64,000 nucleotides of DNA, taken from positions 1 to 64,000 of the forward strand of contig JBGTGT010000040.1 of the NCBI GenBank assembly GCA_041746575.1, in the 5' to 3' direction. This DNA is from Microcystaceae cyanobacterium (GTDB lineage Bacteria > Cyanobacteriota > Cyanobacteriia > Cyanobacteriales > Microcystaceae). The notes under the pieces were generated by a model, which was not told where the DNA came from, ran no database searches, and worked only from the letters and a program-made list of their open reading frames with translations. Below are positions 22,393-54,582 of this stretch, in pieces; the stretch's first letter is position 1, and each line of letters starts with the position of its first letter. Made by a program: the position numbers and the translations under genes.

Positions 22393-22572
22393 AGGCAACC
22401 AAATATCAAGCTGGTCGAAGAACGATTTTCTGTCCCCTTTCTTCAGCCGCGTATCTGATATTTGACCGACTTTAAACATTAAGCTTAATGTAGAAGTGTT
22501 CGAGAATACTAAAAACCCTTGATAAGATGGGATCGTGTCGGGACTTGCATTTTATCGTTTATATCGTTTATT

Positions 22573-23067
22573 ATGAATCAATCGGTCGTCGCAGTTATTG
22601 ATGGTGCTAGAGCGCGCTTTTTTCTGCTAGAACCTGTCGAATTCCCCGAATATCAGTCAGGTCCGAATCTGGTAGAACAAAGTTGTTTAACCAATACCAG
22701 TAATGAAGTGCAAGGAAAGGAACTCTGGGCTAACACGAAAAGTGGACGTAATGGGGGTTCAGGTAATCAAGGCCATGGTTACGATGATCATCGTCAAAAA
22801 CATTTAACTGAATTTGAGCGCAGTTTTGCCAAAGAAATTGCGACTACTATTCTGGAGATTATTCAGCAAAATACGGTTCATCATGCTGTTTTAGTGGCAG
22901 AACCCCAAATCTTAGGATTAATCCGAGAGGTACTACTTCCCCAACTGCCTAAACAGCTTAATGTCGAAGAATTAGCTAAAGATTTATGTAAACTTAAGCC
23001 TCAAGAACTGCATGAGTATTTGGCTGAACGGGGAATTTTGGCGGCGAGAAAAGCGGCGATTGGCTAA
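22573..23067 (+). CDS. Host attachment protein family (release-factor-like fold)
   Basis: VVAVIDGARARFF...ERSFAKEI...LVAEPQILGLIR...KDL. Confidence 0.85.
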   Translation: MNQSVVAVIDGARARFFLLEPVEFPEYQSGPNLVEQSCLTNTSNEVQGKELWANTKSGRNGGSGNQGHGYDDHRQKHLTEFERSFAKEIATTILEIIQQNTVHHAVLVAEPQILGLIREVLLPQLPKQLNVEELAKDLCKLKPQELHEYLAERGILAARKAAIG

Positions 23068-24471: not shown

Positions 24472-26115
24472 TTACATCTCCCACAGTTTAATTTCCAAGT
24501 CATCCCCTGCACTCGCTAACCATCGTCCATCGGGACTAAAAGCGATTGTCCGCACTTCACCAATATGATCAGTTAAAGTGTTTATGAGTTCCCCAGAGGG
24601 AAATGTCCAGAGTTTAATCGTATAATCTGCGCTTGCACTCGCGAATTTTGTACCATCGGGATGAATGGCAATACACCAAACCCTTGCAGAATGACGATCT
24701 AGAATCTTAAGGGGTTTTTTAATATTATTAAGATAATCCCAGATTTTAATGGTGTGGTCTGCACTACTACTAACAAGGTAATTATCATGAATACTTAAAG
24801 ATAAAATCTCTCTAAGATGAGCATTATCATTAAAGGCAATGGGTTTTGTGATTGAATCTTTCATCTGCCAAATTTTAATTGTTTTCTGTTGACTACCGCT
24901 GACTAAAAATTGACTATCGGAACTAAAAGCAAGAGCATTCACGCAACTGGAATGACCTTGAAAACTTTGTTGCCAGTCTCCATTTTCAACATTCCATAAT
25001 TTAATTTTGCCACTACTTTGCCCCACAGCAAATCGTTGATTATCTAGACTAATCGGAAGACGATTAACAAGGGTAAGCGGACTCGATGAACTCGAGCGAG
25101 TGACACTTGCTTCGCTAATGAGAGGACGAGTTAATAAGTCCATCTTCCACAATTTAATCTGACTATTAGCACTACCTGTAATTAAAGTTTGACCGTTGGG
25201 ACTTATCCCAATTGCTTTAACCCGATTGGGGTTATCTTGGCTATTGCTATTTTCTAAGTGATTATGACCGACCAATAAGTGTTTCAATTGACCTGTTACT
25301 ATGTCCCAAACTCTCACTGTCTTATCATCACTACTACTGATTAAAAGTTTACTGTCTGGACTAAATGTTAAAGAACGAATCCAGTCTGAATGACCGAAAA
25401 AAGACTTTACGTAACGATTATTTTGAGCAAGATTACCATCCTTTCGCACAGGATTTATAGCAATGGGCGTCGCTTTCTTTTTTAAGATGGCCGTTGAAGA
25501 AAGAAAGGGGATTTCATCTTCGCTTTTTCGCTGAGGAACGTGAATAAACTTTCGTTCATTGCTATGTTTTTCTTGTTGTGTCCGATAGTCTGGTAAATTG
25601 ACATGAAGGGCGTCACATCCGACATCAAAGCAGTTTTCAATGGTCAAATCAGGTTGAAAATACCCTGTATAAAATCCCTTAGAAAAAGCGATCGCTGCTT
25701 GATCTAAAATCGCACTTTTCATGCCAATCGTGTAATTAATATGTTGGGCGATCGCCTCAGCCTGTTTCTCTGAATAACAGGCATTTAATAATACACATTC
25801 CACCCAATGACTTAAGTTGTCAAAAATATGAGACAATGTTTCTGCATCCAGCAGATGGGGTTCGCCGTTCTCTTGCTCAAAAACAATACCCTCCTCCCCT
25901 GTTCCATGACCACTAAAATGAACAATATGGGGTTTAATATCTAGTAATAATTGACTTAAATTTGATGGATTTACCATAGGACGAAGCTCAATGTAATGTT
26001 GCTTTCGATTCGACACTTGATCTCTTGCCTGTTGAATCGTGTAGAATTCTTTCATGATATCCAGTTGATCCGTTTTCTTGGGATTTGCTGTTAAGATTAA
26101 AATGGTTTTTGTCAT
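24472..26115 (-). CDS. CHAT-domain (caspase-like fold) protein with C-terminal WD40 propeller
   Basis: N-terminal ILILTANP, VHFSGHG and VLLNACYS (His-Cys dyad present); about seven GH...WD-type repeats. Confidence 0.9.
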   Translation of the reverse strand: MTKTILILTANPKKTDQLDIMKEFYTIQQARDQVSNRKQHYIELRPMVNPSNLSQLLLDIKPHIVHFSGHGTGEEGIVFEQENGEPHLLDAETLSHIFDNLSHWVECVLLNACYSEKQAEAIAQHINYTIGMKSAILDQAAIAFSKGFYTGYFQPDLTIENCFDVGCDALHVNLPDYRTQQEKHSNERKFIHVPQRKSEDEIPFLSSTAILKKKATPIAINPVRKDGNLAQNNRYVKSFFGHSDWIRSLTFSPDSKLLISSSDDKTVRVWDIVTGQLKHLLVGHNHLENSNSQDNPNRVKAIGISPNGQTLITGSANSQIKLWKMDLLTRPLISEASVTRSSSSSPLTLVNRLPISLDNQRFAVGQSSGKIKLWNVENGDWQQSFQGHSSCVNALAFSSDSQFLVSGSQQKTIKIWQMKDSITKPIAFNDNAHLREILSLSIHDNYLVSSSADHTIKIWDYLNNIKKPLKILDRHSARVWCIAIHPDGTKFASASADYTIKLWTFPSGELINTLTDHIGEVRTIAFSPDGRWLASAGDDLEIKLWEM

Positions 26116-26160
26116 TTTTTTAGCTCCGAAAAGTTGTTTTAATATCCTTCTGTTTTATGG

Positions 26161-27504
26161 TTATTCTTCTCGATTGTCTTGTAAATTACTTAATTTTCGA
26201 CTGGTGACATCTGCACTTAATCCCCAAAGAACTAAGCCTAAATAATCAGCAAAAGGATTAGCCCCGAAAGCGCGACCATTTTCGACATAAAGCGAACCCA
26301 TTCCAACAATAGATAAACCAATGAGTAAAACAAGGGAAAGGAGAGGACGAGCAATATAGAAAGTGGCATCTGTTCGGACTTGTTCAGAAACCCCAGAGAG
26401 GGTTATTAAAAAGTGTTGAAAATGCTCCAATCCTGTTTTAGGCGTAATAGAATAAGGGAGATGCTCGATGTTTTGAGTAAGGCGATTAATGGCATCATTT
26501 AAAGTGAAAACTCCGCCCACCCCTCCTCTAGCAGTCGCCATCGAACTATCTAATAAATCATTAATTTTTTGCAGGATTTCTTGACATTTTTCATCTTCTT
26601 TACGAAAGAGATATTGACGGGCTAAGGTAAGATAAGAATTAAGGGATTGACTAAGATCAATATCATTGTTAATTTGTTGTTCAATTCGGGTTAAATCTAT
26701 TAAGATATTTAGACGATTGCGTAGGATTTCTTCTTCTATCTTAGCCGCTTCTAGTTGTTGGCGATTAATCATTTTACGCAGGTCATCTGCCATTAAATTT
26801 AATTCTTTTTTATCGGTCTCAGATAAAGAAGCTTCTCGAATATCTAACTTAAGTCGATTCCATGCTTTTAGGGTTTCCGCTTGCGGTGTTCCTTCTTCGT
26901 TCATATATTTAATTAGACGACCAATGATAATACCCAAAAAGATGACAATCAAAGGAATAAGCGGGCCGACTCTGACATCAATACCAATCGGTAAAATAAA
27001 GCGTTCTGCTCGATTTGCCAACGTTAAATAAATTGCACCCATATATTGCTCAGGAGGCAATTGGGAACGATCAATATTTAAAGATAAATTGCTAATTCGA
27101 TTAGCGGGTAAAGATTTAACTTTTTTGTCAAAGAAAATGTTTTCTGCGGTAAGTTGATAGTTCGTTAAATTTCCTGATAGAACAATATCCGTGTTAATAA
27201 TTTCAACGGGGGTAGTATCCCGATTATCTAAATTTAATTGACGGTGATTAATTAACGCACTTTGAGGAAGAATTAAACGAGCTAAGGCACAATCTAACCC
27301 CTCCCAACAATTAACTAATTGCAGTTGAATATGTTCTGTCCCTTGTAAAGCAATTAATAAAGATTGAGGTTGAGGATTGAAGGTCGCTTCAGGTGATTCA
27401 ATAATTGTTTCTTCTTCTACAATCGCTGTTTCAGGTTGTGCTAAGCTTGAAAATTGGAAAATAATTAGAGAAAGAATAACAAAGAAAATAATTTTTTTTA
27501 TCAT
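26161..27504 (-). CDS. Uncharacterised membrane protein: signal peptide, extracytoplasmic domain, TM, coiled coil, two C-terminal TMs
   Basis: MIKKIIFFVILSLIIFQFSSLA signal; GPLIPLIVIFLGIIIG TM; heptad-rich middle region; LLSLVLLIGLSIVGMGSLY and DYLGLVLWGL. Confidence 0.8.
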   Translation of the reverse strand: MIKKIIFFVILSLIIFQFSSLAQPETAIVEEETIIESPEATFNPQPQSLLIALQGTEHIQLQLVNCWEGLDCALARLILPQSALINHRQLNLDNRDTTPVEIINTDIVLSGNLTNYQLTAENIFFDKKVKSLPANRISNLSLNIDRSQLPPEQYMGAIYLTLANRAERFILPIGIDVRVGPLIPLIVIFLGIIIGRLIKYMNEEGTPQAETLKAWNRLKLDIREASLSETDKKELNLMADDLRKMINRQQLEAAKIEEEILRNRLNILIDLTRIEQQINNDIDLSQSLNSYLTLARQYLFRKEDEKCQEILQKINDLLDSSMATARGGVGGVFTLNDAINRLTQNIEHLPYSITPKTGLEHFQHFLITLSGVSEQVRTDATFYIARPLLSLVLLIGLSIVGMGSLYVENGRAFGANPFADYLGLVLWGLSADVTSRKLSNLQDNREE

Positions 27505-27592
27505 ATTTTTCAATAGTTGATAGTTGGTTGATAGATGATAATCCTGTTTTTGACCATCACCTATCTTAAAAATGCAGTCGGCTGTTTGTAAG

Positions 27593-29689
27593 TTATAAAC
27601 GGGTAACTTTAACGGAAATTTGTTCTGTTACCCAATCATCTTTGGAATCAGAAATAGGGATAGCGGCACGGGTTACATTTGGTGAATCTTCGGGATCAGC
27701 ACCAATTTTTTCCATTAAGTGATTAAGTGAATTAATGCTAATGGCTTCTTCCCCTCTGGTTACTGAGCGGCTTTTAATCCTTTCTAATTCGCCACGAAGT
27801 TGTACGCTACGACTTTCCATTGGCTGATCAAGAGCAGGTAAAGTTAACCACCGAAAATCAGCGATTCCTTTACGAATGGCGATGACTTTTAGGGTTTCGA
27901 TTGCTTCTTGATATTCGGCATCATTGGGTAGAGCTAAACGTAATTTAATGTCGTTGGAATCACCACCTGCTAAGTTAAAGAAAGCAGATACTAAACCATC
28001 AATCGGAATTTGAGAAATTGCCCAAGTGGGTTCAATATCTAAAACTGCAATTTTTAAGTCTTGTGATCCTGTATTCGTGATTCTTAAGATTACGATCGCT
28101 TCATTTTTGATAGTGACTTCGCTTAGATTAAAAAAAGGCGTTTCGAGTTCATCTAAAAGTTCGACCTTCAAAGACTTAGACAGACTCGAACTATTATTAT
28201 TTAGACTGAGAACCGCTTGATATTTGGTTAAATGAACTAGACGTTCAATCACCTTTTTTGCCGCTTCTGAATCGTTGATTTTGAGGGCAGGACGTAGATT
28301 TTTGAGGGGTGATCCCTTGGCAATTTCGTACGTTCCATCCAGTGCAACAGCCAATTGAAACAGACTCCCTTCATCTTGACTGACTTCAGTTAACCAACCA
28401 TTCCCCTGTAAAGCTTCACGAACAACGGCTAGGGCAGTTTTTTGCTGATTAAATAAAGGTTGAGGCAGTTCACCGTCCTTGTCGCCTTCTGGTTTTTCAA
28501 ACAGACATATCCGACTGACTAAATCAATGGGAGGTTGAGTCATTACTGCCGGATAACCCCGTTCAATTTTCTGCGCTGAAACCACGCCACCTGCTTCAGA
28601 AGTGAGAATTTTGGCAAGGGAACTCCCCGCCTCAACTTTGGCCACTTCAACCATAGCGATAATTTGACTTTGCTCAGAAAAATGAATTGTTGTCAGGGGA
28701 TAAATAGCGAATCGTGTCCCTTTGCTTAAACCCTGCGCTAATCCTGCATTCAGAGTTACGATTCCTTTGGTTTCATCTACCTCCAGCACTGAGACGGTAT
28801 ATTGACTGGCTAAGTCCTCACTGCCAAAGACTAAGCGATCGCTGTCTCCTAATATCATGGGCAATTGTTGGGGGAATTTTGCTTGAATTTGAGCCGTTAC
28901 TCGATTATGTAAGGTTCTATAGCTCAAAGCTCCCTCAGTCGTGTTTAAGGTATTCACCAACCAATAGGTTAACGCTCCGTGACGATCGGAGCCGAGTACT
29001 GCATATTCGTAGGCGAATTCCGTTGGACGACAGGCGGCTAAGAGAACATAGTCTTTGCCTTCGGGCATCCAATAAGATTGGGAGCTATTTTGCGTTAAAA
29101 TCTGCCAATTTTCTAATAATTCTTGCCTTGATGCGACCTTACTGTCTGAAGAGCGAGGAGCTACGTCAATGGTTTGTGATCCTCGAATTTGAACATCGCC
29201 TCGGGCTGCGCCGCCGGAATGACAGCTATCGAGTACCACCGTCACGATTAACCCTTTATCCGTCATTCGTTTGAGAAGGGTTGCCATTTCCACATCCCGC
29301 AGATATCGCCCCTCTGTTCCCACATCCATCGGTACAATTCCTTCATCATTGGGCATTTCTCCCTTTTTTACTTCAGGAAAGATAGTGGTCGCTCTTCCGC
29401 CGTGACCAGCATAATGAAAATAGACGAGATCGCCTTTTTGCGCTGTTTCCGTGATCTCTTTAAACGTATTAACAATGTTGTCATAAGTTGGCAAGGGATC
29501 GGGCGTAAAAGTGAAATTATCAGAAAGAGGTGCCGTTAATCGCCAAATTTTCTTTGGTTTTTGAGTTTGCTGAATATATTGGTCAACGAGGTTAATATCT
29601 CGAACACATCCCCCCAGATTTAGATAATAGGGATTGGGGGTATAAGCATCAATACCAATTAAAAGAACGTAAAAATTTGGGTTACTCAT
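27593..29689 (-). CDS. Caspase family (peptidase C14, ortho/metacaspase) with long C-terminal extension
   Basis: LLIGIDAY, LGGCVRD, FHYAGHG (His96), VLDSCHSG (Cys156), LLAACRPTEFAYE, HGALTY. Confidence 0.93.
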   Translation of the reverse strand: MSNPNFYVLLIGIDAYTPNPYYLNLGGCVRDINLVDQYIQQTQKPKKIWRLTAPLSDNFTFTPDPLPTYDNIVNTFKEITETAQKGDLVYFHYAGHGGRATTIFPEVKKGEMPNDEGIVPMDVGTEGRYLRDVEMATLLKRMTDKGLIVTVVLDSCHSGGAARGDVQIRGSQTIDVAPRSSDSKVASRQELLENWQILTQNSSQSYWMPEGKDYVLLAACRPTEFAYEYAVLGSDRHGALTYWLVNTLNTTEGALSYRTLHNRVTAQIQAKFPQQLPMILGDSDRLVFGSEDLASQYTVSVLEVDETKGIVTLNAGLAQGLSKGTRFAIYPLTTIHFSEQSQIIAMVEVAKVEAGSSLAKILTSEAGGVVSAQKIERGYPAVMTQPPIDLVSRICLFEKPEGDKDGELPQPLFNQQKTALAVVREALQGNGWLTEVSQDEGSLFQLAVALDGTYEIAKGSPLKNLRPALKINDSEAAKKVIERLVHLTKYQAVLSLNNNSSSLSKSLKVELLDELETPFFNLSEVTIKNEAIVILRITNTGSQDLKIAVLDIEPTWAISQIPIDGLVSAFFNLAGGDSNDIKLRLALPNDAEYQEAIETLKVIAIRKGIADFRWLTLPALDQPMESRSVQLRGELERIKSRSVTRGEEAISINSLNHLMEKIGADPEDSPNVTRAAIPISDSKDDWVTEQISVKVTRL

Positions 29690-29795
29690 GGTTATTTAGG
29701 GATTAGGAGTTAAAAAATAAGGGGATTAGGGACAAGAAATCTGTTTATGTCCCTGTTTCTCCCCCCATTGCTAAAATTCATAGCTGGTCACTGTT

Positions 29796-30719
29796 TTAAG
29801 CCAGTTTTCCCCATGTATTAGGGCCAACCATGCCATCCGCGCTGAGTCCTTGCGCTTGCTGAAATTCTCGCACTGCTTTAGCGGTATTTGGTCCAAAAAC
29901 CCCATCTGCGCCAACGTTCAATTTTTGTTGCAATTTCACCACATCTGAACCCCGCATCATCGGACGACTAAGGCGTAGGAGACGAGGTTGTTCATCCCAA
30001 GGTGCGATCGCAAATCCCATCACCGGAGATTTCGTTAAGGCGGATTCAGTGTCGGGACCATAATCCCCATCTTCGTCAATTTTTGAAGTAGGATGATTTT
30101 TATTCCAGAGTTTTTGAATAGCTGACATTGCCGTACTGCGAAGATCTTTCTTTCCTGCGCCTACATAATCAAAATGAGGGGGATCAGAGGGGCCTAACCA
30201 ACGCCACCCCTGACGTTCGAGAAAAGGTTTCCAGCCATTATGATCTTGAATATCGATCGCTAATCCACTTTGGTGGTTACTACGCCCAGGAGCGGCAACA
30301 ATGGAATAACCACAACCCCGTCCCCACCGAAATAAGAGTAATTGTTGAGCAATCGTCCGATAAGCCGAATTAACGGTCATACTTATGCCTCTTTCTTGAA
30401 TAGCTTTGTGTAAGCCTTCTTTTGCGGGGGGTTGCACAAAGGGATAGGCCGCATCTCCCAAGTTCACCTTCAAATCATCAAAACTGACGAGGGCATCGGG
30501 AACAATGAGGTTCATCTGGTGAATCAACTGCTGAGACAGACCATCCACGATAAAGGTCGAGCATCCGGGAGCAGATCCCAGCAAACCTGTAAAAGCCGCC
30601 CGTGTTGCCACGTCTTCGCTGGCACTTCTGGCTTCTCCCTCATTAATATCTAGACAGGGATCAGTCTCAAAGTCTAGCTCGATAGTATCTAGGATGTTAT
30701 CCTTATGAAAATCGGTCAT
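29796..30719 (-). CDS. M15-type zinc peptidase with two peptidoglycan-binding domains and an acidic N-terminal leader
   Basis: SAYRT, SNHQSGLAIDI (SxHxxGxAxD), DPPHFDY; DGDYGPDT and DGVFGPNT..VREFQ..GL.ADGMVG PG-binding repeats; no signal peptide. Confidence 0.88.
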   Translation of the reverse strand: MTDFHKDNILDTIELDFETDPCLDINEGEARSASEDVATRAAFTGLLGSAPGCSTFIVDGLSQQLIHQMNLIVPDALVSFDDLKVNLGDAAYPFVQPPAKEGLHKAIQERGISMTVNSAYRTIAQQLLLFRWGRGCGYSIVAAPGRSNHQSGLAIDIQDHNGWKPFLERQGWRWLGPSDPPHFDYVGAGKKDLRSTAMSAIQKLWNKNHPTSKIDEDGDYGPDTESALTKSPVMGFAIAPWDEQPRLLRLSRPMMRGSDVVKLQQKLNVGADGVFGPNTAKAVREFQQAQGLSADGMVGPNTWGKLA

Positions 30720-30803
30720 GTTTTCTCTCCTTAGTGTGAGTAGGTGAACAAAATCAATGAATCAAGAACGCTGATAATTTGCTCTGTTTAACACCGTTTT
30801 TTC

Positions 30804-31718
30804 TTAAAGACCTAAAGCTTGACGGGTTGCTGAGCCAACTTTTCCGTCCACGTTTAACCCTTTTTGACCCTGAAACGTGCGTACTGCCTGATCAGTCGCT
30901 TGGCCAAAGACGCCATCTGCTCCTGATTCACCGACGCTTAAACCCGACTTGAGCAAAGCCTGTTGCAGTTGTTTGACATCTTCCCCCTTCATCGAAGGAC
31001 TGGTAAGTTGCAAGAGTCGAACCGTGATTTCTGTTTGTTGTGCTTGATCTTGCCAAGATTGGCTTAAAAACAAAGCTTGTTCTGCTTTACGTCGCCGAGT
31101 CAATCCGGCTAAGGCTTGTCCACCTGCTTTATTCCAGCGAGGAAATTCATTGGCTGCTCCTTGAATATCGCCTTGATTGAGCTTTTTGAGCAACGTAGAT
31201 TGAAAAAACGCCCTTGCTCCCACATTGAAAGCAAAAGAGACGAGAGCCGCAAATTGATGCTCATTGAGGGCAATTTTAACAGCGCGGGAAACCGCCTCTT
31301 CAAAATTAGCAAGGTCTTCTCGCAGAAAATCATCCGCCTTCGCAACGGCAATTCTCATTCCTCGAAAAACCCCTTTGGTATGACCATAACCAATCGTCCA
31401 AACGCCTACCCCATCGTCATAGGCTTTTAACTCAATAAGTGAACCCTTTTGAAAAACTTTTTCGGCTAATCCTTCAAACGATTTAATTAAGTTGAGTCCT
31501 TCTGAATTAATTCGTTGTCGAGCGGCGCGGGTTGCCGTTTCCCTTATTTCAGGAACGGGTGTATCAGCCTCTGCGATCTGAAAAGTTGTTGCTGGGGAGA
31601 ATGCCAAAACGTCTTGGAGTCTTTGAGCATCTCCTTGCGTTTCCGTCATTTTAATGGCTGTACCGTCTTCGAGTTCATAAACCCGGCCATCGGCAAAAAT
31701 AAGGAGTGAATAGGACAT
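30804..31718 (-). CDS. GH24 (phage-type) lysozyme with C-terminal peptidoglycan-binding domain and N-terminal leader
   Basis: LIKSFEG, AYDDGVGVWTIGYGHT, QFAALVSFAFNVG, GLTRRRKAE; MKGEDVKQLQQAL..DGVFG..T PG-binding domain; no signal peptide. Confidence 0.92.
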   Translation of the reverse strand: MSYSLLIFADGRVYELEDGTAIKMTETQGDAQRLQDVLAFSPATTFQIAEADTPVPEIRETATRAARQRINSEGLNLIKSFEGLAEKVFQKGSLIELKAYDDGVGVWTIGYGHTKGVFRGMRIAVAKADDFLREDLANFEEAVSRAVKIALNEHQFAALVSFAFNVGARAFFQSTLLKKLNQGDIQGAANEFPRWNKAGGQALAGLTRRRKAEQALFLSQSWQDQAQQTEITVRLLQLTSPSMKGEDVKQLQQALLKSGLSVGESGADGVFGQATDQAVRTFQGQKGLNVDGKVGSATRQALGL

Positions 31719-53606: not shown

Positions 53607-54582
53607 ACGTCAGTTCGGGATAAGGCGGCTAAGAAAAGGAGAGGGCTTGTAAGCTGAAAGATATTGAAAATACTCAGCACCCTCGTCCTATGTTTAGTTT
53701 AGAAATTTTATTTTGTCACGTCGATGATTATTGCCAAAGATTTGAGCCGAAGTGGTCTGCTCAACGACTAGATAGAGATATTAATAGTCGTAAAAGAGCT
53801 AGAAGCTTGATTTTAAGTGAAATTATGACTATTCTCATTGCTTTTCATCAAAAACATTATCGTAATTTCAAACATTACTATCTCGACTATGTTTGTGTTT
53901 ATTGGCGAGAAGCTTTTCCCGGCTTGCCAAGCTATCAAAGATTTGTTGAGTGGATGCCCTCAACCTTAGTTCCTTTATGTGTCTATCTCAAAGACTGTTT
54001 TGGTCAATGTACTGGAATCAGCTTTTTGGATAGTACGAGTCTCAAAGTCTGTCATAATCGTCGCATTTCACAACATCGAGTCTTCAAAAATCTTGCTGCT
54101 CGCGGCAAAACTTCTGGCGATTGGTTTTATGGTTTTAAATTACATTTGGTTGTCAATGAGCGTGGTGAACTGCTTAACTTCAAAGTGACTCCAGGCAATA
54201 CCGATGACCGCCAACCGGTTCTTGACTTGCTCAAACCTTTCTTCGGTAAGGTCTTTGCCGACCGAGGTTATGTCTCTCAATCCTTGAGTGAAAAGCTGTT
54301 TCTTGAAAATGGGATTGAGTTTTTTGCCAAACCTCGCAGTAACATGAAAAATCGACTGATGCGCTTGCACGATAAGTTTTTATCTCGCAAACGCTCCATT
54401 ATCGAGACGATTATCGACCAACTCAAGAATATCTCTCAAATCGAACATTCTCGCCACAGGAGTCCCGTCAATTTCTGCGTCAATCTTCTGTGTGGTTTAA
54501 TTGCTTATTGCCATCAGCCCAAAAAACCTTCTCTTGAGTTAGAGTGGGTTTTACCGACTTTTGCTTAACCCGAACTCAGGTT
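53606..54582 (+). mobile_element. IS982-family insertion sequence
   Basis: Ends AACGTCAGTTCGGGATAAG and CTTAACCCGAACTCAGGTT (16/19 inverted match) flanking the transposase. Confidence 0.93.
53690..54568 (+). CDS. IS982-family DDE transposase, apparently intact
   Basis: [33 protein letters not shown]. Confidence 0.95.

Follow-up and report, generated by a model that had tools for sequence, protein, structure and literature searches.

Bacterial caspases have been described beside several kinds of effector. One such caspase cleaves a hydrolase zymogen at Arg-Gly (R-G) sites (Evans et al. 2025, 10.1101/2025.11.14.688446), and caspases have been found paired with alpha-beta hydrolases, lysozyme being mentioned in the accessible portion of that survey only for a trypsin/EAD1 system (Kaur et al. 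2020, PMC7159879). SAVED-CHAT, in turn, activates the caspase PCaspase (Steens et al., 10.1101/2023.06.23.546230). Here, we analyze a five-gene locus in a 64,000-nucleotide stretch of DNA from a Microcystaceae cyanobacterium (assembly GCA_041746575.1, contig JBGTGT010000040.1, positions 1 to 64,000; below, the window). The locus encodes a GH24 lysozyme, an M15 zinc peptidase, a C14 caspase, a membrane protein, and a CHAT-WD40 protein. It is a real, conserved system and a variation on protease-effector defense, in which peptidoglycan (PG) hydrolases are the candidate substrates.

Judged by the accessible portions of the cited reports, the locus shares features with each described system and departs from each. 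As in the caspase/alpha-beta-hydrolase module (10.1101/2025.11.14.688446), a caspase lies beside predicted latent enzymes with modular sensors, and the conserved R-G sites of the caspase partners are present, in a broader [RK][GAS] form; unlike in that module, the candidate substrates, of which a locus has several, are PG hydrolases and a membrane protein. An alpha-beta hydrolase is absent from this locus, and tblastn with one relative's hydrolase gave no match in the same genome; an LCAT/PGAP1-like hydrolase occurs in 22 of 67 related loci (see below). As in SAVED-CHAT/PCaspase, a sensor-fused CHAT protease accompanies a separate C14 caspase in an initiator-executioner layout, but the putative sensor is WD40 rather than SAVED, the locus contains no CRISPR or cyclase gene, and the candidate substrates are dedicated motif-bearing proteins rather than a sigma factor, an inhibitor, and a kinase. 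With the bacterial gasdermin (bGSDM)-protease systems (Johnson et al., 10.1101/2021.06.07.447441), the locus shares C14/CHAT proteases with WD40/TPR/NACHT fusions and Gly at P1', whereas its effectors would be wall hydrolases; a gasdermin is found in one relative (L031), and no bGSDM match was obtained among the five proteins, to which that search was confined. The system works like known protease-effector modules, yet it falls outside the hydrolase, PCaspase, and gasdermin systems as these are defined. A PADLOC search, which a preliminary description of this DNA made from sequence alone had suggested, matched the 'caspase' and 'chat' models. A literature search found no description of caspase-activated PG hydrolases or of an M15/M74 cysteine switch, although preprint supplements, a possible place for such neighborhoods, lay outside it; two supplements of PMC7159879 gave no VanY, M15, or lysozyme match.

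The five open reading frames (ORFs) are intact and occupy 24472..31718 on the minus strand, between alr and the divergent ndhA, at distances of 169 and 355 bp, respectively. The gaps between them are 84, 106, 79, and 45 bp, in agreement with the tight, co-oriented arrangement initially reported. Pfam assigned GH24 lysozyme plus PG_binding_1, VanY/M15 plus PG_binding_1, Peptidase_C14, and CHAT plus six WD40 stretches to four of the proteins and no family to the membrane protein. All expected catalytic residues are present: E82/D102/T108 in GH24, H149/D156/H182 in M15, H96/C156 in C14, and H70/C113 in CHAT. The N-termini of both hydrolases are acidic and lack a hydrophobic segment and therefore give no sign of a signal peptide. 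The preliminary description was thus right about two PG hydrolases with PG-binding domains but no signal peptide and about two caspase-fold proteases with intact His-Cys dyads. The CHAT-WD40 protein has no nucleoside triphosphatase (NTPase) domain. The multispanning membrane protein of the preliminary description stands in part, as a protein with a signal-peptide-like N-terminus and two clear membrane segments (180-198 and 392-410), possibly with a third.

To assess conservation, a single sample of 400 further genomes from the order was searched for the caspase, the membrane protein, and GH24 with the N-terminal extension. Caspase orthologs were found in 49 of these genomes, with none in the 27 sampled genomes of the cyanobacterium's own family, and the membrane protein in 15. 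N-extended GH24 was present in 27 genomes, 26 of which also hold the caspase ortholog; compared with 49/400 overall, this places co-location above chance, with kin inflating the counts. N-extended GH24 lay within 10 kb of the caspase in 20 of 30 loci, versus 1 of 35 other GH24 matches, that one being cut by a contig end. The lone genome with N-extended GH24 but no caspase match has lost the cut-site motif described below, a single case. In a sample of the phylum, M15 peptidases bearing the propeptide were beside the caspase in 11 of 14 loci, the other 3 lying at contig ends, versus 0 of 16 for those without it; one further M15 locus with a cut N-terminus was excluded. In these counts, many of the positives come from one genus, so that they reflect a small number of independent events.

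In total, 67 distinct caspase loci were compiled, a biased set in that many were reached through M15. Their neighbors include M15 (31 loci), GH24 (29), both (26), a second CHAT or C14 protease (48), the LCAT/PGAP1-like hydrolase (22), a 159-aa helical protein (15), a 585-aa protein (5), a C39-like protein (4), an M74 peptidase (3), and the membrane protein (2). A core of GH24, M15, the C14 caspase, and a second, sensor-fused protease recurs across cyanobacteria; the caspase is constant, and sensors and effectors interchange around it. The five genes do not form a fixed unit: the membrane protein is rare, and different sensor proteins are found.

Four of the five proteins carry, at a variable junction, an x-[R/K]-[G/A/S] site, for which cleavage before the small residue is predicted. 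This junction motif is found in 114/120 M15 homologs, 32/34 GH24 homologs, and 57/58 membrane proteins of the shorter form, against within-segment shuffle maxima of 74, 24, and 39, respectively, from shuffles that ignore kinship. Here and below, M15 residue counts refer to the best 120 of 529 homolog matches, and the membrane-protein motif count to the 58 of 90 homologs that are 420-490 aa long. Conservation in the motif-bearing segments is lower than over the proteins as a whole. The motif likewise marks one position of the LCAT/PGAP1-like hydrolase (21/22) and of the 159-aa protein (13/15) and is present in the M74 peptidase (3/3), and the gasdermin of locus L031 has R-G 30 residues from its C-terminal end. 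In the form [AV]TRAA, chosen after it had been seen, the motif has 4 occurrences across 2,800 ORFs from this genome, 3 of them in consecutive genes here. TRAA as the exact recognition site was rejected, homologs showing only x[RK][GAS].

One candidate substrate is the M15 peptidase, which has the M15 (LAS) signature S-x-H-x-x-G-x-A-x-D and the later His. Its propeptide contains an E-x-C motif whose cysteine, Cys22, is kept in 120/120 homologs. Cys53 and a second Cys near residue 136 are jointly present in 78 homologs and jointly absent in 42; because these two covary while Cys22 is invariant, Cys22 is not their partner, and they probably form a disulfide without it. When residues 8-40 were modeled against residues 41-240 plus zinc, the complex scored 0.72 (0.78, 0.02, and 0.72 in three runs), while the best control reached 0.03; the runs shared at least 10% of contacts. 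The score mark is reached by 116/157 solved versus 2/215 mismatched pairs, counts that hold only roughly with our own alignment and ligand. The most confident contacts of the best run are Cys22-Asp156 and Cys22-His182, Asp156 and His182 being two of the three zinc ligands; none of the solved relatives covers the propeptide. According to this model, the propeptide probably locks the active site with Cys22 on the catalytic zinc, a cysteine-switch arrangement. Zinc-blocking propeptides are known from matrix metalloproteinases (MMPs), which use Cys, and LytM, which uses Asn (PMC9662197). As far as the accessible portion of that source goes, the likeness is that the catalytic zinc stays blocked by a side chain of the propeptide until proteolysis (here, in the model), and the differences are that the fold is M15 rather than metzincin or M23, that the motif is an acidic E-x-C, and that the predicted activator is a neighboring intracellular caspase. 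An M74 peptidase in three other loci (L103:6582-8180, L174, and L185), which has PG-binding domains and, in L103, GH19, carries its own acidic, Cys-bearing leader ending in R-G that resembles the M15 propeptide.

The C14 caspase (PF00656, E 9e-20) has metacaspases as its nearest solved structures, and D31/D154 align to theirs; we take these to be the S1-pocket residues of metacaspase-type enzymes. H96, C156, D31, D154, and R163 are each present in 63/63 orthologs, while H92, considered as the catalytic His, is found in only 55/63 and was rejected. Cleavage by this caspase is probably Arg-directed. PCaspase is reportedly cut at R153, seven residues after C146, a detail not found in its preprint. 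Close orthologs of the caspase lie on cyanobacterial plasmids (L197, L198, and NC_019761.1), one predicted to be conjugative, which fits the patchy distribution; in another locus (L023:4144-11757), this caspase stands at the head of a MoxR/VMAP ternary-type system. The genome itself has more CHAT-like matches and a second, distant caspase (contigs C5, C12, C28, C69, C85, C97, and C98), which could be additional inputs.

The GH24 enzyme has the Glu-Asp-Thr triad and a fold match with Z 21.6, a root mean square deviation of 1.7, and 147 aligned residues, in a search that used the whole model and did not probe the N-domain. In this model, the predicted cut site falls in a low-confidence loop after a well-folded N-domain. 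A profile search with the N-domain retrieved 54 proteins, and in the nine examined, it was attached to SLT, C39, amidase, GH19-like, phage-type GH24, or unclassified domains. Since it sits on unrelated endolysin-type enzymes as well, an inhibitory role is doubtful; the idea of a bespoke lysozyme inhibitor was rejected, and the N-domain may instead have been acquired from phage as a module for wall binding or targeting. The earlier proposal of protease-gated, wall-degrading zymogens is consequently uneven: the shared Arg/Lys-small-residue site, the M15 propeptide with its modeled Cys-Zn contact, and co-location strengthen it, whereas for GH24, whose N-domain is a module common to other hydrolases and not a proven inhibitor, it is weakened. 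As a module of 56-60 aa outside any Pfam family, the N-domain is present on P0231, P0233, P0235, P0236, P0241, P0246, P0252, P0255, and P0256 and is a candidate new wall-binding or export domain. On a viral contig (L199:4675-5687), it is carried by an endolysin adjoining a holin-like gene for a small hydrophobic protein of 109 aa; in a search of viral contigs, the N-domain profile and P0233 gave no matches.

The membrane protein belongs to no known family, and an Atlas search returned only unnamed clusters for it and for the 159-aa protein. At the position of its R-G loop, M-G is found in 17/26 longer homologs versus 4/64 shorter ones. In each of nine aligned M-G loci, a large gene lies upstream of the membrane protein gene, and three of these genes are CHAT by Pfam. 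Because M-G loops follow CHAT-class genes, the P1 residue appears to track the neighboring protease, and the longer subfamily has the appearance of a second protease-effector module, one specific for Met. A CHAT protease cutting Leu-Gly is documented in the accessible portion of one report (10.1101/2021.06.07.447441). The alignment left out L137-L139, L143, and L150, and the L198 row is not a homolog; the membrane proteins of L137-L139 have neither the motif pattern nor an adjacent protease. Members of the longer subfamily with the M-G loop after a large CHAT-class gene (L140:9076-13152, L141, L142, and L144-L149) are often flanked by convergent caspase-NTPase genes.

In the CHAT-WD40 protein, the CHAT Pfam match covers residues 36-120, and the SAVED_CHAT model matches weakly and within the CHAT part. 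The corresponding sensor slot of relatives is filled by CHAT- or C14-STAND/NACHT/TPR fusions. The features of the locus are collected in Table 1, in which the predicted local distance difference test is abbreviated pLDDT.

Table 1. Genes and predicted functional elements of the five-gene locus
Feature	Coordinates	Strand	Support
547-aa fusion of a CHAT protease (H70/C113) with a WD40 propeller; candidate for initiator and sensor	24472..26115	-	
Membrane protein outside known families (about 447-450 aa): N-terminus resembling a signal peptide, transmembrane segment 180-198, inferred cytoplasmic helical region, transmembrane segment 392-410; accessory	26161..27513	-	
ARG, residues 328-330, R-G loop of membrane protein (predicted cut at R329)	26524..26532	-	M-G at same place in longer subfamily
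Metacaspase-like C14 caspase (698 aa) with H96/C156 as dyad, D31/D154 in an acidic pocket, 400 C-terminal aa outside any Pfam family, and further TRG/TRA sites at 644 and 673	27593..29689	-	
Arg163 of caspase, seven residues past catalytic Cys and followed by Gly; candidate activation cut	29201..29203	-	R in 63/63; Gly next in 46/63
M15 zinc peptidase of 307 aa with H149/D156/H182 as ligands, an invariant D179, and two PG-binding repeats	29796..30719	-	
Acidic M15 propeptide, residues 1-40, ending ATR-AA (predicted cut between R and A)	30600..30719	-	Motif in 114/120 homologs
Cys22 of M15, predicted fourth zinc ligand (cysteine switch)	30654..30656	-	120/120; modeled contacts C22-D156, C22-H182
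GH24 muramidase of 304 aa, in which a folded 60-aa N-domain and a predicted cleavage loop precede the lysozyme domain (E82, D102, T108) and a C-terminal PG_binding_1	30804..31718	-	Pfam, model
ATRAA of GH24, residues 62-66, predicted caspase site R64-A65 in low-confidence loop	31521..31535	-	Residues 62-65 pLDDT <50; motif in 32/34 homologs
N-terminal beta/alpha module of GH24	31539..31718	-	Structure model, pLDDT ~90

These results favor a model in which a sensor protease activates an Arg-specific caspase, which in turn unlocks wall hydrolases and a membrane effector for programmed lysis; we regard this as somewhat probable. Binding of a ligand to the WD40 propeller would activate the CHAT protease, and CHAT, by analogy to SAVED-CHAT/PCaspase, would cut the caspase, probably at Arg163-Gly. 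As the shared motif suggests, the caspase would then cut its neighbors after Arg/Lys and before a small residue. In the structural model, removal of the propeptide would pull Cys22 off the M15 zinc and free a PG endopeptidase; the lysozyme would lose its N-domain, and the membrane protein would be cut in its putative cytoplasmic loop. Breach of the membrane, by this membrane protein or, elsewhere, by a lipase-like hydrolase, the 159-aa helical protein, or gasdermin, would give the signal-less hydrolases access to the wall, and the cell would lyse, most likely as abortive defense; that the outcome is defense by self-lysis has, in our estimate, an even chance. In a broader form, which we hold tentatively and at slightly worse than even chances, this would be a cyanobacterial initiator-executioner cascade in which the executioner reads a common Arg-Gly/Ala tag on interchangeable locked effectors (lysozyme, M15/M74 peptidases with cysteine-switch propeptides, lipase-like hydrolase, membrane proteins, and gasdermin), with programmed self-lysis through the wall as the outcome. 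The P1 residue of the tag would track the protease, Arg with this caspase and Met with the second CHAT class, and substrates would therefore be predictable from sequence.

Three other proteins or loci touch on this effector set. The 159-aa helical protein (L074:67-546 and 14 other loci), often encoded on the opposite strand, begins with an acidic N-terminus, has an x-R/K-G/A site around residue 58, and ends in a hydrophobic hairpin; it is a candidate membrane-breaching effector. The 585-aa protein has no Pfam family, is encoded directly upstream of the caspase (L173:5314-7071, L175, L177, L179, and L182), and ends in TRG/VRG plus a short tail, so that it is possibly C-terminally locked. In locus L031:1534-11133, the caspase is found together with the membrane protein, a CHAT-TPR protein, a C39-like protein, a truncated GH24, and a gasdermin whose tail is preceded by R-G.

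Several observations weigh against this model. One of the three complex runs scored 0.02, and the partner pLDDT was 65/31/65. The loose dipeptide is frequent elsewhere too, for example in 120/120 homologs near M15 residue 106, and the R-G sites are candidate targets of either protease, C14 or CHAT. At least five catalytic types, as well as a prophage-like endolysin, carry the GH24 N-domain, and the cut-site motif is present in 1 of 9 linkers of other N-domain fusions; the N-domain looks like a general binding or targeting module. Genetic linkage is also incomplete, in that 23 of the 49 caspase-bearing genomes are without N-extended GH24 and only 2 of 67 caspase loci have the membrane protein. 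Propeptide-bearing M15s fall mostly in one clade (2 label changes on the tree), and the linkage thus represents one or two events. Finally, passage of the hydrolases over the inner membrane is an inferred step.

The same proteolytic unlocking could serve a nonlethal opening of the wall, either for protein export of the holin/endopeptidase type, of which ChiW/ChiX is an example, or for controlled septal or wall remodeling. Among M15 enzymes, a D-x-x-H rather than an E-x-x-H motif is linked to specificity; in this peptidase, the third zinc ligand is preceded by D-x-x-H, and its fold matches include Ply500, LysB4, and ChiX, features that would suit such an opening, as would the covarying Cys pair, since the disulfide that it suggests would point to action outside the cytoplasm. 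The neighborhoods, however, hold STAND/NACHT/TPR/WD40 protease fusions, a MoxR-VMAP system, and a gasdermin, the caspase is patchily distributed (49/400 genomes and 0/27 in its own family), and no recurring cargo gene lies near it, making a nonlethal role unlikely. Marginally less likely still is an antagonistic weapon, in which latent hydrolases would be activated and released by lysis of some cells against competitors or bacterial predators, with the propeptides shielding the producer. That GH24, M15, M74 plus GH19, and C39-like chemistries are stocked beside one protease would fit this use, and no obvious immunity genes accompany any of these hydrolases; yet recurring secretion-system genes are absent near the caspase, the sensor fusions point to intracellular triggers, and a Gram-negative outer membrane would generally limit access.

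We consider it improbable that the locus is a loose defense-island cluster whose R-G/A sites are merely flexible linkers or inactivating cuts, with hydrolases that act independently of the proteases. The dipeptide is indeed common and present elsewhere in the same proteins, gene content around the caspase varies, and the GH24 N-domain is not enzyme specific; but at least six unrelated families have kept the motif in loops rich in indels, it becomes M-G in those membrane proteins whose gene lies after a different CHAT-class gene, and the active site is predicted to be blocked in the model with Cys22. A lysis cassette left over from a prophage and captured beside caspase genes, suggested by matches of both hydrolases to PHROG endolysin families and by the N-domain on a prophage-like endolysin, is very improbable and, as a present function, largely refuted by intact genes conserved across families and by the lack of phage genes in the window scan, of an M15 relative in viral contigs, and of any match to the endolysin's holin-like neighbor in the related loci examined or in the genome itself, although a phage origin of the GH24 module is plausible. 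In phage records, matches to the M15 protein were limited to its catalytic and binding parts.

The surroundings of the locus were also inspected. Pfam scans, one of them at E<=1e-12, found no phage structural or integrase family among 48 window ORFs, as the preliminary description had claimed, and no holin or phage genes surround the hydrolases within the locus. A repeat search of the region found no long or terminal repeats, and promoter and terminator scans stayed at chance level (23 versus 22.3 and 10 versus 8.6, respectively). Inclusion of alr in the unit was rejected; alr and ndhA have other neighbors in the relatives checked, and the insertion site is therefore not definable. A Host_attach/baeRF-family gene (22519-23067) converges on alr, and a DDE transposase gene lies further along the window (53690-54568). 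The named relatives are cyanobacteria.

The native substrates of cyanobacterial caspase homologs are a long-standing gap in work on regulated cell death. MaOC1 cuts an antitoxin (PMC7935541), and an Arg specificity based on docking has been described (PMC8283722); the accessible portions of these two papers name no wall hydrolase as a substrate. The locus described here offers named candidate substrates, predicted cut sites at R40, R64, R163, and R329, and a specific predicted lock, Cys22. If the model is correct, wall hydrolases would join the protease-gated death effectors, the cysteine switch would be extended to M15/M74 peptidases, and a genetic route to lysing environmental cyanobacteria would become available.

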